Assembly: GCA_963715195.1 (NCBI GenBank)
Contig: CAVQRT010000014.1
Span: 30,333-94,332, forward strand
Direction: 5' to 3'
From: Thermodesulfovibrionales bacterium
GTDB lineage: Bacteria > Nitrospirota > Thermodesulfovibrionia > Thermodesulfovibrionales > SM23-35
DNA: 64,000 nt
Below are positions 45,915 through 55,633 of this stretch, in pieces. Within the stretch, counting starts at the first letter, position 1, and each line of letters opens with the position of its first letter. A program made the position numbers and the translations under genes. The notes under the pieces are model-generated. The model did no database searches. It saw nothing but the letters and a program-made list of their open reading frames with translations, and was not told the origin of the DNA.

Positions 45915-46769
45915 TTAAGTTACACTAAGAGCCTTTTCATACTGCACGGGACTCTTATACCCTAATGCCGAATGCTTTCTAGTACGATTATAAAACACTT
46001 CCACATACTCAAAGATGCTTAAGCTTGCATCTTCCCGTGTCTGATACTTCTCACCGTGGACTAAATCCTTCTTCAGTGTTGCAAAAAAGGATTCTATGTA
46101 TGCATTATCATAACAATGCCCCTTTCTACTCATACTGGAGAGAATATGGTATTTCTGAAGAAGTCCCTGATACGCATATGTTGCGTACTGCCTGCCACGA
46201 TCAGAATGATGGACCAGCCCTTCTGCAGGGGGGCCACTCTCTAATGCCTGCCTCAGTGCTGCCATAACCAGTTCCTGCGACAGTTCATCTCTCAGAGAAA
46301 ATCCTATGATCTTCCTGGTCCTTACATTCATGACTGCTGAAAGATACAACCATCCCTCACGAGTACGAATAAACGTGATATCAGATACCCATAAACGCTC
46401 TGTCTGCTTATTTGCAATGAGCAGATTCGGAGCTATAGGATACCCATGCTGTGAGTCTGTCGTCTTCTTGAATTTCCTTTTTATCTTTACCCGAATACCG
46501 CTATCCCTCATGATCCTGGCTACTCGGTTCTTGCCACATGCTATCCCCTGTTCATGGAGTGTATCTGTAATCCGTGGACTCCCGTAGGTCTTCCGGCTGT
46601 CCCTGTAAACTTCCCGAATACGTTCTAAAAGCTCTTTATTGGCTTCTTCTCGCCTGCTCGGCCTTCGCGTCCTCCATGCGTAATAGCCACTTCGAGATAC
46701 CTTCAAGACCTTGGACATTCTCTTCAACTTAAATACTCTTCGGTGCTCATCCATGAACAGATACTTCAT
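45915..46769 (-). CDS. IS3 transposase OrfB (DDE)
   Basis: YGSPR, WVSDIT, HHSDRGRQY, DNAYIESFF, YNRTRKHSALG. Confidence 0.95.
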   Translation of the reverse strand: MKYLFMDEHRRVFKLKRMSKVLKVSRSGYYAWRTRRPSRREEANKELLERIREVYRDSRKTYGSPRITDTLHEQGIACGKNRVARIMRDSGIRVKIKRKFKKTTDSQHGYPIAPNLLIANKQTERLWVSDITFIRTREGWLYLSAVMNVRTRKIIGFSLRDELSQELVMAALRQALESGPPAEGLVHHSDRGRQYATYAYQGLLQKYHILSSMSRKGHCYDNAYIESFFATLKKDLVHGEKYQTREDASLSIFEYVEVFYNRTRKHSALGYKSPVQYEKALSVT

Positions 46770-47074
46770 CCTTGTTGTTTGGAGAAGACGGCCAACGCTT
46801 TTTTTAAAATATCACGCTCCTCTTCAACCTCTACTAGCTTCTTCCGCAACTTCTTCAACTCCGCGTCCTCTGGCTGTGGATTCCCTTTCCCGACAAAAGC
46901 AGCTTCGCCCTTTTGAAAGTACTTCTTTCTCCATTGATGGAGGAGTTGTGGATGAATATCAAGATCTCGGGCTACTTTGCCTACCGGTAATCCCTTGTCG
47001 GTTACCAATTTCACTGCATTTCTCTTATACTCGATTGTGAAATGACGACGGTTGCTCTCTTTTGTCATGAACAC
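46766..47074 (-). CDS. IS3 transposase OrfA (HTH)
   Basis: EYKRNAVKLV..VARDLDI; EERDILKKA containing an A7 slippery run. Confidence 0.93.
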   Translation of the reverse strand: MFMTKESNRRHFTIEYKRNAVKLVTDKGLPVGKVARDLDIHPQLLHQWRKKYFQKGEAAFVGKGNPQPEDAELKKLRKKLVEVEEERDILKKALAVFSKQQG

Positions 47075-47474: not shown

Positions 47475-48486
47475 TCCCTTTCAGCTCTGTTTAATTTTTA
47501 AAAATATTTTTTCAGCTGAATAAATTTGGGGTGGGGAGATTCCAAAACCAACTTTTTCAGTTCAGGAACTGATAGAAGAATTTAAAAACCTTCACTTCAC
47601 ATTTTTCATTTTATGTATTATCCATTTCCCTACGAAGGCTTTCAATAACAACTTGTACATCATAAACACCTTTAATAATTATCGGCTCATGGCTCATATA
47701 AAGAATAAGAGAGCCGATAATGCAAATGGTGCTTCGATTATATTTGCTTTGTAAGAAATTTCGTTGTAGCTCGCTAGAGGTGGTCGGGTTTGTTTTACTG
47801 AGACTCCCTGATAGCAGGCGAAGTTGAGATAAAATCGATTTCATAGGTGGTCATTAGATTCCAGAGCAGGTGTGCGAGTTCCATAAATAATAAATGGGAT
47901 AGAGAAAATAATTCCGAATGGAAGAGTTTGAATAATAATTGAGCGTAGTATATCTATTTTCATAATCTGACGGGTGACTTCCTGAGAAATTATTGGTGAG
48001 TATTTAATTAGGAAGAAAGAATGAATAAAGCACAATAAATAGATGGGTAGGAACGAGATAAAGGCTGGTTTTCTTTTATAATAAAAAAGAGGATTTTTCC
48101 ACCTTGTACTACCTCCTTTGACGTTTACTGCAAATAATTGTACCACTGCTGAAGTTTTTTGATGTAAAAATTTCTATTTGGGCTGTACATCTTAATTGAG
48201 AGCTTCAATGTGTGCGAATCACAGCAAGGCATCTTGCCGCAATATTTCCAAAGGTAGTCTTGACCGAACAAATAATAGAGAAGGCTGAATGTTTGGATGG
48301 GAAATAAACGATGTCAAAAAATGCAGGGGTGAGGACTGCTATGTGGTACAGGCATTTTCGCCCGAGTGAACAATTCGGAGTCCTTCTTCATCCTATACGT
48401 AACAAAGCCTACTTTTTCTTTTAATATTAGTTAGTTACAACTATACTCATCACGTCTATTTTTCGTAATCCTATGGCCTTCCTTTA

Positions 48487-49420
48487 TCAGTTTGTCCATC
48501 TATTATTGTCCGGAGCTGCGGAAGACACCTTCGTTGATGAATCGTTATTTCTTATCGGTTGTGTCCTCTCCAGTACAAAATGGCTTTATAGTAATCCCTC
48601 TGAACTTTAAGATTTGAGACTCTGCAGTAGCATTGCGTTGTTGTAATCCTGCTATGACCCAGCAGATCCTGAATGGTAACGAGCTCGGCATCTGCATTCA
48701 ACAATTGCGTTGCCATCGTGTGCCTCAGTTGATGGCAGGATACGTATTCCGGCGCTCCGTGCGTAGTATTCAATCCTCTTTTGGATGCCGCGAACTGATA
48801 TCGGCTTTCCCCTCTGCGTCCCCTTTTGTACCAAGAACACTCTTTTCTCCTTCGACCATCTCCGCTTGTGCATGTATTCTTCCAAGGCACTCTTCGCATC
48901 TTCACTCAGATAGACGACCCTCCCTTTACCACCTTTTCCGTTGAAGATATACAGCTGTCTGTTGCGATACTCTATCGCAGAGACCGTGAGTCGTGCAACC
49001 TCTTCAACCCGTAACCCACATCTGAGCATAACCATGAAGATGGCCCGATCTCTGACATCGTTGATCTTTCTGAAGAGTGTTGTAATCTCTTCGTCTCGGA
49101 GATGCTTGGGAAGTGGCGGGCAGACGAAGCCGGTAATTCTTCTTGATCGGATTAACCATGGGCATCCCCTCATCTTCTATCAGATGGTCGTAAAAAGCGT
49201 GGATGCAGCTGAAATGACAGTTGATGGTTTTTGGTTTTTTTCTCCTTCTCAGGAGATGATCCATATACCTCGGCTTCTTGGAGGTCACCTGCTCAATGGG
49301 AATCTTCAGCCAGTTCATGAAATGATCAAGCATATTGACATAGTTTTTCACGGTGTGTGTCGAATAGTTCCTTCTCTTCAGGAACCTCCTGTACCCGGCA
49401 ATAAGATCAGTATGCTCCAT
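48487..49420 (-). pseudogene. tyrosine recombinase B (frameshifted)
   Basis: SAM-like N-terminus, RDRAIFMVMLRCGLRVEE, HQLRHTMAT, LLGHSRITTTQCY spread over several frames. Confidence 0.88.
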
Positions 49421-50040
49421 GAATACCTCCCTGTTCGATAATCGCCATCGCACGGAAGTATTCCTCTTCGCGGCTTTTATCGGTAAGACGAGCATATCGC
49501 CGAGTTATCTCTATGGTACGGTGGCCTAAAAGCAGTTGAAGATATTCCAGGCGCATCCCAGCATTAAGCAGTTCGCTCGCAAACGTATGGCGAAGACTGT
49601 GGATCGTATACCCTTTGTGCTGCAGCCCCGCAGCCTTTATGCACCTTACAAAAATATTGCGGGCTTGCGTGTATCCTAAATGGTTATCCCGCGACCTTGG
49701 AACAGATATTGTCTTTTCAGCTCTGCTCTGCCAATCCATAGCCTGATGGCCATGAGTGCATCATCGCTGAGATATACGACTCGCCCAAGACAGTTCTTTT
49801 CTCCCTCATAGATGTGTATCTTTCTCTCCCTGATATCCAGGTCCCTTACTTGCAGGCGAAGGAGGACTTCGCCGATTTCATCCCCGTCGCAAAAGAACCA
49901 ATATCAGCGCACGATCACGTGCTTTATCAATACAACCGAGTAACTTTTCTGACATCAGCCGGTGCAATGGCCCTTGGCAGGAATCCGGTGCCTTGAGCTT
50001 GATCTTCCGTTTGAGTATGCGCCCATCAATGATCTCCTGA
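49407..50040 (-). pseudogene. tyrosine recombinase A (N-terminally truncated, frameshifted)
   Basis: HSLRHTFASELL, LLGHRTIEITRRYARL. Confidence 0.88.
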
Positions 50041-50969
50041 TTGCCTCTTCAAGCGCCTCAGTGCAGAATGAGGCATCCAGGGTATTTGATAGCCTCCACG
50101 CCAACACCTTCCGGCTTGCCCAGTCCATAACTGCCACAAGGTAACAGAAGCCTCTGGCCATCGGCAGATAGGTTATGTCTGCTGCCCAGCAGTGATTGCC
50201 TTGCTGATCTCCAACCTCGCAGAAGATACGGATAGACTTTGTGACCCGGATGAGGAATAGAGAGCCGGGGCTTCTGGTATAACGCCTCTATCCCCATCTT
50301 CTTCATCAGAGTGCTCACATGTCCTCTGCCTACGTCATGTCCGAGGTCCCGAAGTTGATTCCGGATACTCCGGCTGCCCATAAAGGGATATTTCAGATGA
50401 ATCTCATCGATCAGCCTCATCAGTTCAAGATCACGCGCACTGATCGGTACAGCCTCGTAATACAGGCTCGAACGCGATAGTTGCAAGTATCTCACTCTGT
50501 CTGGTCAAGGACAACGGATGTTCCCGGTCGATCATTTCCTTGCGCTCGGCTCGGCTATTCGCCCGAGCGCGACTGATAAAAAATCATTCTCTATGGCAAG
50601 TTGCCCAATCTTGGCATGCAGTTCCTTGATGCTTGGCCCTTCTGTGTGTCTTCTTATCCTTTGCAAATACTTCCTCTGCTCGCTCTAAAAGTTGTTTCTT
50701 CCATTCAGTGATCTGGTTCGGGTGTACCTGGAAGCGTTCTGACAACTCAACTATGGTCTGCTCCCCCTTGATTGCCTCTAATGCTACCTTTGCCTTGAAT
50801 GCTGCCCCGTGGTTCCTTCTCGGTCTTTTCATCTTAGCCGCTCCTTTTTGGTCTTTATAGGGTCAAACAGCAAAACCGGCTTCGCCATTTCCCCTATACG
50901 GGGCCATCAGAGCATTCTCGATCTCTGATACCCCATCTTGTTCCTATTTTAGAGCAGCGTTACCACTTA
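50041..50969 (-). mobile_element. truncated, frameshifted IS3-family element
   Basis: orfA MKRPRRNHGAAFKAKVALEA (50584-50832); orfB fragments GSRS, YPYLLR, WAADITY, CYLVAVMDWASRKVL ending at EALEEAI; upstream end position uncertain. Confidence 0.85.
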
Positions 50970-51361: not shown

Positions 51362-51557
51362 TCCTATCCAGAATAAAATATAAATCTATGAATACATAAT
51401 TCTCGTTCTCAAAAAAACATTATTATTTATTTTTCTTTGAAAAAGTTTCACCTGAATGTGTCTTTGATGAAGCTATACGTAACAAAATAGATTGATTCTT
51501 AGAGCCGTCTAGGGGTCATGATTAATCCTGCTTTTTCAATGAGAAAGAGGAGGAGCA

Positions 51558-52588
51558 ATGACCCAGTCAAGTGCAATTCTTAGAGGCAATCATCTGTGAA
51601 ATCGCAGCAGTAAATTTTAACAGCGTAGCAGTCTCTCCTAAAGTAGCAGACTCTCCTATTGATCGCATTCTTAAAAGGATCTTAGTATTGGATCTTCCCG
51701 GCAGCGAGCATTTTGAGAATTACATGCGCTACAAGTGGAGAATGAATCACAAGCCAAGCACTCTTCAGGGCAGCTTCATTGCTGTGAGTTCTTTTCTCAC
51801 TTTTCTATGCAGGCCTTGGTAAGAACCAACTACAAGAGATTGTCAGCGGTGATATTGAAGCATTTGTAGAACATGAGCAGGACAGAGGGCTCAAAATCAC
51901 AACGATCGTGACACGGGTTAAGCAATTGTGGGCTTTTCTGAGGTTTCTGTTTGATCAGGATATTATTGATGGACGCATACTTAAACGTAAAATCAAACTG
52001 AAGGTTCCCGAATTTCTGCCGAGGGCTATTGCACCCGGCGATATAAGAAAGATTCTTGATGTCATTAAGGACAGTCGTGACCGTGCCCTGATCCTCGTGC
52101 TCTTACGAACGGGCATGAGAATAGGTGAAGTGCTTGGCTTGAAGATGATAGATCTTGATGTCCAGGAGAGGAAGATACACATTTATGAGGGCGAAAAGAA
52201 CTGCCTTGGACGAGTGGTATATCTCAGCGATGATGCTCTGATGGCCATAAAACTTTGGCTCCCTAAAAGAGATCCGACAAAAGAATATCTCTTTCCCGGC
52301 CTAAGGAATGGCATTATGTTACACTTCAGGCCCGGAATATCTTTAGACGATATTTGAGGGAAGCAGGGCTTCAACACAAAGGCTATACAATCCACAGTCT
52401 TCGGCATACCTTTGCAAGCGAACTGCTCAATGCCGGCATGCGCCTGGAATGTCTGCAAGTGCTGATGGGTCATCACGACATAGAAATAACCCGGCGGTAT
52501 GGCTCGTCTTACCGATAAGAGCCGCGAAGAGGAATACTTCCGAGCTATGGAAATCATCGAGCAGGGAGGCATTCATGGAGCTTACTGA
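51558..52588 (+). pseudogene. tyrosine recombinase A (several frameshifts)
   Basis: AGGAGGAG RBS; RDRALILVLLRTGMRIGE, HSLRHTFASELL, LMGHHDIEITRRY across frames. Confidence 0.88.
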
Positions 52589-53520
52589 TGCAATTGGCAG
52601 GTATCGCAGATTCCTGAAGCGAAGGAACTGTTCGGTTCACACTGTAAAAAACTATATCAACATCCTCGGTCACTTCAGCAGCTGGCTGCAGATTCCTATA
52701 GAGGAGGCGACCATCAAGGAAACCGATGCGTATATGGACCATCTCTTGAGGAATAGAAAGAAACCAAAGACCATCAACTGTCATTTCAGCTGCATCCATG
52801 CCTTTTACGAATATCTGATAGAAGATGAGAGAATGCCTCTTATCAATCCGGTAAGAAAACATTACAGGCTGCGACTACCCAACCCACTGCCCAAACATCT
52901 CAGGGACGAACAGGTCTCAACACTCTTCAAAGAAATTAACGATACCAGAGATAGGGCTATGTTCATGCTGATGCTCAGATGCGGCCTGCGCGTTGAAGAG
53001 GTTGCACGACTGACAGTAGATGCGATAGATTATCGCAGCAGACAGCTTTATGTCTTCAATGGAAAAGGCAGCAAGGACAGGGTTGTCTATCTCAGCGAGG
53101 ATGCACTGAGTGTCTTGCAGTCGTATATGCAGAAACGCGAGATGGGCTAAAGAGAAAAGAGTGTTCTTAGTGCAGAAGGGACCGCTGAAAGGGAAGCCGA
53201 TATCAGTGCGCGGCATTCAAAAGAGAATTGAATACTATTCACAGAAGACCGGGATACAGGTATCCTGTCATCACTTGAGACACACCATGGCAACACAGTT
53301 GTTAAATGCAGATGCTGCTCTTGTCACCATTCAGGATCTGCTGGGTCACAGCAAGATTACCACAACGCAGTGCTACTGTAAGGTTTCCAATCTGAAAGTA
53401 CAGAGGGATTACTATAAAGCCATAAAGGTTGTATTGCAGAGGACACAGCCAATAAGAAATAACGATTCATCAACGAAGGTGTCTTCCGCAGCTCCGGACA
53501 ATAATAGATGGACAAACTGA
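52575..53520 (+). pseudogene. tyrosine recombinase B (one frameshift near 53140)
   Basis: RDRAMFMLMLRCGLRVEE, GKGSKDR, HHLRHTMAT, LLGHSKITTTQCY; start overlaps the gene A stop. Confidence 0.9.
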
Positions 53521-53756
53521 TAAAGGAAGGCCAATAGGATTACAAAAATAGACGTGATGAGTATAGTTGTAACTAACTAATATTAAAAGAAAAAGTAGGC
53601 TTTGTTACGTATAGGATGAAGGATGTTTGCCTCCCATAAGCCCGGGAAAGCTGTTTGCATAATTTACCCCGAAAGGAACACGCTATTTTTCTTTAAGTCA
53701 CATAGAAAATAAATACTCCTTGAATTTGGAACAGATATTACTTTCTGAATAATTAT

Positions 53757-55573
53757 TTATAATTCAACTCGCATCATGACTCCATGCAGTTTATGCACAG
53801 GCAGGTTATAGAATTGAACAAATGCGGAGACAATTTTTTGATAATGCTGAATACTTTCCAAACAATATTTTTAGTCATGATATCTTCGAGTCCATAAAAG
53901 ATTGTTTGCTCCTCAATTCCCGCTTCTTTCAGTATTTCCTCAATGTCAGGGATCTCCATATATCCTGTCTGTATTTCAAAAACCCTTAATCCTGGACCCA
54001 GTTCCTCCTTAAAAAAGCCTATAATCCCAAAAGGATCACTCCTTTTTATAATGGAAACAATAATATTGTTCTCATAAATGATCCTGTTTATAAGAATGCT
54101 TCTAACCATATAAGGAGGAATTTCTTGAGGATCTTTCAAAAAGAAAAGCGCTGTTCCCTTTAATTTGTCCATATTCTTATATGCCAGATTATATCTCTCG
54201 ATAAATTCATTTAAAGGAACAATATCCATGGTTTTATAAAGCTTTCTCTGCCCTTTTGTATAAATCAGAATGATACAGAGAGGGAGGATGCCGATAAGAA
54301 TTGACCAGTAACCACCATGCGGAATCTTATAGATGTTTGACAGGAGAAAAATCATATCAACAATACTGACAAATAAAGCGATAAGGGCTTTCCCCATACT
54401 TCTTTTTTTGTAAAATATCCATGTCATGAATATTCCTGTTAAAGACATGGTCCCCGTAACTGCCAATCCGTAGGCAGCAGCAAGCCGATGTGATTCCCTG
54501 AATTCAAGCATAATGAATAACACGGAGAGAAGGAGAAACCAGTTGACTAATCCGATATATATCTGAGACTGCAATTCTTTTGATGTGTAATCGATCTTAA
54601 ATAAGGGGATAATGTGAGTAGTTATGCCCTGATAGACAATCAGAGAACATTCCACTTATCATGGCTTGTGATGCAATAATCGTTGCGATAATGCTTAGAA
54701 TCAAAAAGGGAACGTACAGTGTAGGGGCCTGATGAAATATCATTTCAAACAGTACAAACTTTGCATCGGGATGATTCGCGATATATGCTCCCTGTCCGAG
54801 ATAGTTCAATAAAAGCGCAATAAAGACAAAATACCATGCTCTTAGAATCGGTGCCCTTCCTAAATGTCCCATATCAGCATATAACGCTTCCCCTCCTGTT
54901 GCACAGAGAATGACTTCTGAGAGCACAAAAAAGGCAATAATCCCATTCTCCCATGAGGAATTTTATTGCATAGTACGGGTTGATAGCTTTTATCACAACT
55001 GGGGGTGCCTGATATTGACGCTATCCCTGACACAGCTAAAGCGATGAACCACAACAACATCAACGGTCCAAATGATCGTGCTACCTTGTCAGTCCCCTTT
55101 TTCTGAAAAGAAAACAATACGATAGCAATAATTCCAGCCAAAGCTATCAGTATCGTTTGACTTGTGTGCTCAAAGCCAGGTATTAATTGGATGCCTTCAA
55201 CAGCACTCAGTATGCTGATAGCAGGGGTAATGACACCGTCACCGATTAACAAGGATATCCCGATATAGGTGAGAAATGTCACAAATGTCACTTGTCTTCC
55301 GGATTTCAGGAGAGGAACCAGCAATTCTTTTAATACGATAGTCCCGCCTTCTCCACGTTGACCGAGGCTCATCGCAAGCCAGGCATATTCAATCGTCACA
55401 AGAATTACGAGAGTCCATACAATAAGGGAAAGGACACCAACCACGTGATCCAGTGTCGGTTTTGTAAGAAGGAAAATAACGGTTAGGGTATAGATAGGAC
55501 TTGTGCCGATGTCTCCGAAGACTAATCCCAGGGATTTTATAATCCCCTTTACAGGTGATTCGGTGTTATGCAT
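53757..55573 (-). pseudogene. kup: KUP/HAK/KT potassium transporter (at least 4 single-base indels, possibly sequencing errors)
   Basis: GLVFGDIGTSPIY, GEGG, GDGVITPAISILSAVEG, GGEALYADMGHLG, QIYI, AAAYGLAVTG; shifts near 55003, 54951, 54640 and 53828. Confidence 0.93.
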
Positions 55574-55600
55574 AACTCCTCCTCAAAGGGCAAAGGAGGA

Positions 55601-55633
55601 AAAATAAAAAACCGCTGGCAAGGCAGCGGTTTA
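55601..55633 (-). terminator. intrinsic terminator in the kup leader (riboswitch expression platform)
   Basis: Minus strand aaaccgctg-ccttgc-cagcggttt followed by a U-rich tract. Confidence 0.85.

Follow-up and report, generated by a model that had tools for sequence, protein, structure and literature searches.

Positions 51473 to 53614 of the window, the stretch of 64,000 nucleotides analysed here, hold a unit that spans 2142 bp from end to end of two perfect 14-bp inverted repeats (51473-51486 and 53601-53614), and the heptamer GATGAAG abuts the outer edge of both. Between the repeats lie two tyrosine recombinase genes, intA and intB, which overlap by 14 bp when their limits are set against 95%-identical relatives. 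The preliminary description of this unit, with two overlapping recombinase genes, 14-bp repeats and GATGAAG on either side, is exact. In a profile search the recombinase fragments matched PF00589 and SAM-like integrase domains, and the N-terminal piece of intA matched no family in the domain search. Elsewhere in the 2.8-Mb genome there is no perfect 14-bp inverted repeat pair flanked by a 7-bp direct repeat, and 20 mononucleotide shuffles of the window produced none either. The element, and a second copy nearby, comprise the following features.

51457..51465, + strand: left target arm, host DNA, which matches the loose family target consensus by its TG (-9/-8) and its T (-2)
51466..51472, + strand: left 7-bp core GATGAAG, probably the target's own core, as judged from element-free sites of relatives
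51473..51486, + strand: left terminal inverted repeat, the arm to which a recombinase presumably binds
51492..51522, + strand: TTGA...CATnAT pair, candidate promoter of a two-gene operon, with columns invariant in 12 left ends
51527..51536, + strand: sub-terminal 10-mer that may serve as an accessory site for binding, shared by 57 of the 60 complete copies
51558..52588, + strand: intA, the first tyrosine recombinase gene; close relatives have proteins of about 337-341 aa
52575..53520, + strand: intB, the second tyrosine recombinase gene; close relatives have a protein of about 310 aa
53590..53599, - strand: the sub-terminal 10-mer again, inverted and 15 nt in from the right end, likewise in 57 of the 60 complete copies
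53601..53614, + strand: right terminal inverted repeat
53615..53621, + strand: right 7-bp core GATGAAG, probably carried by the element, since it recurs after the second copy's right end elsewhere and right cores are fixed within lineages
53622..53630, + strand: right target arm, host DNA, with the conserved A at +2
48386..50041, - strand: second copy, truncated and frameshifted, with the 3' part of intA, intB, the right inverted repeat (48393-48406) and its core (48386-48392)
50042..50860, - strand: IS3-type remnant in place of the second copy's left part, limits approximate

The TTGA...CATnAT pair was absent from the output of a promoter consensus scan.

Both genes of the window copy are interrupted. 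Measured against 95%-identical intact relatives, intA has five single extra bases (near 51584, 51799, 52313, 52328 and 52504) and intB one (near 53139), and besides these six coding insertions there is a further one in the leader; no base is missing and no new stop codon has arisen. Silent and replacement changes stand at 24:13 and 28:12, much as in comparisons between intact copies (63:37 and 52:26). A sequence error throughout the genome was ruled out, as 50 of 56 tested gene entries are in a single frame and the other six are those of the window element. Local errors in the consensus sequence are the explanation we favour, if only by a modest margin of confidence, and very recent decay is rated somewhat less likely. 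The neighbouring kup potassium-transporter gene (53760-55630, - strand) is split by extra bases near 54642 and 54954, lesions like those of the element.

The first reading had missed both the second copy at 48386-50041 and an orphan right end on another contig of the same genome. The second copy is 80% identical to the window element overall and 98% identical across the final 181 bp (48386-48566 against 53441-53621), so that one of the two must be chimeric, whether their ends were exchanged or the assembly is wrong here. Its right end is followed by the same GATGAAG core at a different insertion site, and its frame lesions are mostly missing bases, unlike the extra bases of the window copy. 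An intact IS3-family element (45915-47074, - strand) lies beside the copies and, together with the IS3-type remnant, marks the region as a hot spot for mobile elements. The orphan right end (contig C30, 152228-152333; 107 bp) is followed by AAGAAGA rather than GATGAAG and has no adjoining recombinase gene.

A family of two-gene elements

The window element is confirmed as a frameshifted member of a real multi-copy family of about 2.05 kb whose only genes are two tyrosine recombinases. The IS-like two-recombinase element proposed at the outset thus stands, with many copies and with ends conserved across relatives. Its hosts are sediment and soil bacteria with Nitrospirota and deltaproteobacterial genomes. 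Some match to the element was found in 18 of 101 related genomes, and at E 1e-60 in 2 of 301 genomes of a phylum-wide sample, its own genome being counted in both cases; the latter figure indicates a patchy spread. Scanning a genome collection with IntB returned 170 relatives, the best 80 of which share 55-95% identity and nearly all bear record titles naming Nitrospirota or deltaproteobacterial lineages. In a protein search with 8000 candidates scored, the 120 clusters listed showed 78-100% identity; they come mostly from short metagenome contigs and are often annotated as XerC or XerD. Abundant as they are in metagenomes, the family's proteins are routinely given these labels, and so the family is missed in annotation. 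A viral collection yielded neither a joined-end junction nor a relative of IntA, and plasmids yielded distant recombinases only, the best among the matches listed having about 30-33% identity.

Up to 12 near-full copies occur in a single genome (G101). We collected 60 distinct copies with both ends found, of which a filter that asked for two long open reading frames with the motifs retained 52. Two genes alone, within 2022-2408 bp, make up 48 of the 60, so that the question whether homologs usually carry a third gene can be answered: most copies have neither a third recombinase nor TnpC. Two further copies contain an IS, and ten (L063, L069, L073-L076, L080, L083, L087 and L095) have one extra reading frame of about 400 aa after intB. 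The product of the latter is TPR-like in its C-terminal part and 62-81% identical between groups; the domain search detected in it no recombinase domain and no Pfam family above cut-off. The perfect terminal repeats measure 12-15 bp in 52 of the 60 copies and less in eight. The sub-terminal 10-mer lies 52-54 nt from the left end in the 57 copies that have it, against a background of 119 in 3000 windows.

IntA spans 335-388 aa and IntB 292-328 aa in 12 pairs. The catalytic set R-K-H-R-H-Y is complete in both proteins in all 11 aligned intact pairs, and the H-x-L-R-H motif of IntB varies at x only. In a maximum-likelihood tree built quickly from 42 proteins, IntA and IntB fall into one clade each (SH-aLRT 100 and 99) with similar branching, and a sister relation between the two is left undecided. 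Both clades lie apart from RitA/B/C, XerC/D, IS91-linked recombinases and the pSEA1 integrases, in a tree whose deeper forks are unsettled, in which RIT elements are represented by two trios of pHG1 and the SE integrases of pSEA1 were assigned by size and place, not by annotation. IntB matches the putative SE IntA of pSEA1 at E 1e-7, and IntA gave no match to it. As far as sequence can tell, this comparison shows two recombinases that would both be catalytic, having the full set of residues, and that are inherited together.

Two observations concern the flanks of individual copies. L068 and L088, from one assembly, have right flanks that are 98.5% identical and left flanks that differ, which suggests a duplication or rearrangement ending at the element. 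A 60-90 bp repeat in the left flank of L033 (3365-3455) recurs in dozens of related genomes, including that of the window.

Origin of the two 7-bp cores

Where do the heptamers on either side come from? Both flanks were available for 55 insertions, which are not independent counts, as the copies are kin. Left and right 7-mers are equal in 37 of them and unequal in 18, which rules out a target-site duplication. Within the 18 unequal pairs the matches at positions 1 to 7 number 8, 5, 4, 10, 17, 17 and 18, i.e. the final three bases nearly always agree. Unequal 7-mers that share their last three bases bear out the earlier proposal that the heptamer is the crossover core. Three copies break this rule, namely L054, L143/L138 (genome G105) and the decayed L144/L140; the body of L143/L138 is 100% identical to that of L133, and its right core is nonetheless different.

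Right cores are uniform within lineages, although fifteen different ones exist among the 55 insertions. In G101, CAGGGTG stands at seven right ends opposite five different left cores; in G102 the right core is GTGGCTG in four of four copies, and in G103 it is CGTGGTG in four of four, whose bodies are 85-96% identical and none of whose left cores equals it. G101 and G102 each contain a left core equal to that of the lineage, so a single perfect donor could account for their patterns. By our reading, the 14 unequal left cores of G101, G102, G103 and G105 all fail to recur at any right end of their own genome.

The source of the left core can be checked in 4 of the 18 unequal insertions, with L221 as one useful added homolog and the homologs of L033, L047 and L055 left out of the evidence. 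With L053, an exact left core stands at the nearest two element-free sites (L184 and L192), and two that are more distant agree with neither core. The left-flank homologs of L028 and L026 run on into the left core or a near match. The left core of L031 exactly precedes one right-flank homolog; another (L196) is slightly closer to the right core, with five of seven positions against four for the left, and a further two match neither core. The exact right core occurs at none of the element-free sites or flank homologs of these four insertions. The comparison shows, where it can be made, a left 7-mer that matches the target and a right 7-mer that follows the element. According to the element-free sites, short repeats of the host are frequent targets, and this accounts for left cores that recur. 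A second subfamily in G101 (L111-L116) has perfect CATGTCG cores and right flanks that mostly start with TAACCATC, a repeated host target.

For the window copy, the direct repeat of GATGAAG claimed at first is present; its two halves would have different origins, the left having come from the target and the right with the element. We infer an insertion at a perfect-match target, in which the identity of the two 7-mers would be a coincidence of target core and carried core. No empty site was found for this copy, and the kup loci of three relatives are without its left flank; contigs of four other runs, which span the element only, contained neither its circle nor its empty joint. Compared with CAGGAAG of the 95%-identical relatives, GATGAAG differs at positions 1 and 3, an example of how cores do appear to drift at positions without a homology check.

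Around the core, the target arms form a loose palindrome, with T at -2 in 40 and A at +2 in 46 of the 55 insertions (background 0.29 and 0.30), TG at -9 in 16 and CA at +8 in nine. This palindrome differs from the element's own terminal repeat. The predicted junction of joined ends was found in a relative, in one of four loci (L101-L104) returned by a scan of metagenome contigs. L103, a contig of 2246 bp with both genes, reads right end, core, whole element, the same core and host flank; a 7-base match alone cannot produce its 45-base terminal repeat, and the junction is therefore real on this one contig, in circular or in tandem form. L101, L102 and L104 have no recombinase genes and were not counted as circles. 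They are lone joined-end hairpins among ordinary genes (L101:1090-1120, L102:1911-1941, L104:3001-3030), the spacer in L101 and L102 being one base off the common core CACCTAC, and are candidates for a scar or a chance terminator.

Proposed mechanism and rival explanations

Taken together, these observations favour a minimal tyrosine-recombinase transposon that moves as a circle by one-strand exchange, with resolution by replication and an inherited right core; we give this reading a probability of about 0.68. The left and right junctions would recombine into a circle joined as right repeat, core, left repeat, which would then pair with a loosely palindromic target and exchange a single strand. 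The strand in question would be the bottom one, with its cut where the core ends on the right, and about three matching bases would be required. Replication of the junction would leave the target's core on the left and the element's on the right. The one-strand reading builds on the strand-swapping model of tyrosine recombinases: a match at the right-hand three bases, a target core on the left and an element core on the right would all follow from one bottom-strand exchange and subsequent replication. In integrons and CTXphi, too, one strand is exchanged and the junction is resolved by replication, as proposed here. If the element also leaves by exchange of the same strand, its right core would be passed on and become heritable, steering later target choice in such a way that complete 7-base matches are favoured without being necessary. 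On rare occasions a target core might be captured, which would alter the unchecked first positions.

How would two recombinases share this work? Joined ends and target sites are both roughly symmetric, unlike dif, and a division of labour in which one protein binds the element ends and the other the target would fit at least as well as a XerCD-like heteromer. A stronger version is more tentative, and we would sooner bet against it than for it: that this is the smallest autonomous tyrosine-recombinase transposon, with one recombinase holding the ends, the other the palindromic target, and a swappable, heritable 7-bp core guiding insertion.

The end products could also be reached by other routes. 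The most serious competitor, to which we assign perhaps a one-in-five chance in view of the 37 perfect insertions among 55, holds that only copies with identical cores leave, by prophage-like two-strand exchange, and that unequal copies are dead ends of one-strand integration. Tyrosine recombinases usually demand cores that are strictly identical (PMC2817482), and both G101 and G102 have the lineage-equal left core that this requires. G103 argues against it, with four unequal copies out of four, diverged bodies and no perfect donor among the copies found, an argument that is not decisive because perfect donors may have been lost or left unassembled. Far less probable is a relay of the SE or Tn554 type, in which the circle copies the donor's left core and delivers it to the right end of the new insertion. 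It would produce the same end state of target core left and carried core right, and elements of both types copy the left core, so that the footprint changes with each round (PMC10214605 and PMC12486829); changes of core do occur, as GATGAAG and CAGGAAG illustrate. The uniform right cores within lineages, and the failure of all 14 unequal left cores to appear on any right end of the same genome, speak against such a relay.

Lowest of all we rank a decayed RIT or Tn554-like element that has lost its third gene, or one that depends on a third factor in trans. Its genes do overlap as in RITs, TnpC-less Tn554-like pairs exist (PMC3414803), and ten of the 60 copies have a third reading frame. That frame, however, is TPR-like and encodes no recombinase, both inverted repeats directly adjoin the two genes, and near-identical two-gene copies sit at several sites of one genome; neither protein groups with RitA, RitB or RitC, or is of the 611-828 aa type seen in Tn554-like pairs. 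We therefore keep to the minimal transposon with an inherited right core as the preferred reading.

Relation to known systems

The two-recombinase family is apparently unnamed so far, and its restriction to two genes and its inherited crossover core are apparently new: the literature, taken without ISfinder, TnCentral and paper supplements, gave no description of a two-recombinase-only element with a right-inherited 7-bp core, and members may be on record in the supplements of PMC8138268 and PMC3414803. A paper of 2023 (PMC10214605) distinguished five groups of transposons with tyrosine recombinases and regarded their relations and routes as unresolved; to these the family would add a sixth, without any accessory gene. 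Such a two-gene system makes it testable why two catalytic recombinases are needed and what sets the strand bias, and an inherited core predicts simple retargeting. If the core does act as a guide, the insertion site of a lineage would be set by a swappable core while the proteins stay unchanged.

Judged by gene content, the element seems to fall outside the definitions of RIT, SE/GInt and Tn554, and would work most like SE and Tn554. With SEs it shares a pair of tyrosine recombinases that are both catalytic, inverted repeats of short length at the termini, a circular intermediate (here a proposed one) and the absence of conjugation genes, and with SE/GInt a target core on the left and a carried core on the right, for which 4 of the 18 unequal insertions of the family are informative. 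SEs, as PMC10214605 describes them, have four genes (intA, tfp, intB, srap), one large recombinase and a 6-bp core copied from the donor's left, and occur in one or two copies per replicon in Gammaproteobacteria, whereas the family has two genes of ordinary size, a 7-bp core inherited on the right and up to 12 copies. The SE/GInt core genes tfp/ginC and srap/ginD are missing, the two genes filling the element, and copying of the carried core from the left does not seem to operate here, given that 0 of 14 left cores recur on the right.

The Tn554 family, including Tn552-II and TnpC-less pairs, is alike in its two tandem tyrosine recombinases and circle junction; to its left lies the 7-bp target core and to its right the core that it brought in, the circle mostly carrying the left core (PMC12486829). 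These types have TnpC or at least one recombinase of 611-828 aa, according to section 10 of PMC3414803. By the descriptions of Tn554 the family is set apart, as it has no TnpC and no recombinase over 600 aa. RIT elements are likewise compact and multi-copy, with overlapping recombinase genes between terminal inverted repeats, but they have three genes and 34-bp repeats (PMC3414803 and PMC10214605) instead of two genes and repeats of mostly 12-15 bp, and the proteins of the two RIT trios sampled share 24-34% identity with the family and form separate clades.

IntDOT of CTnDOT resembles the family in its 7-bp overlap and one-sided homology check. CTnDOT, integrons and CTXphi differ in using one integrase or the host's Xer proteins, and in their conjugation genes, cassettes or phage genome.

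The XerC/XerD-dif system also has a related pair of simple tyrosine recombinases, each about 300 aa long, and NCBIfam Xer models are the best matches of the family's proteins. All Xer cut-offs are missed, with 129-202 bits against XerC (cut-off 335), 117-179 against XerD (330) and 142-198 against XerA (220). The dif site is asymmetric, whereas the sites of the family are symmetric and mobile, and the host has its own XerC-like and XerD-like genes elsewhere.
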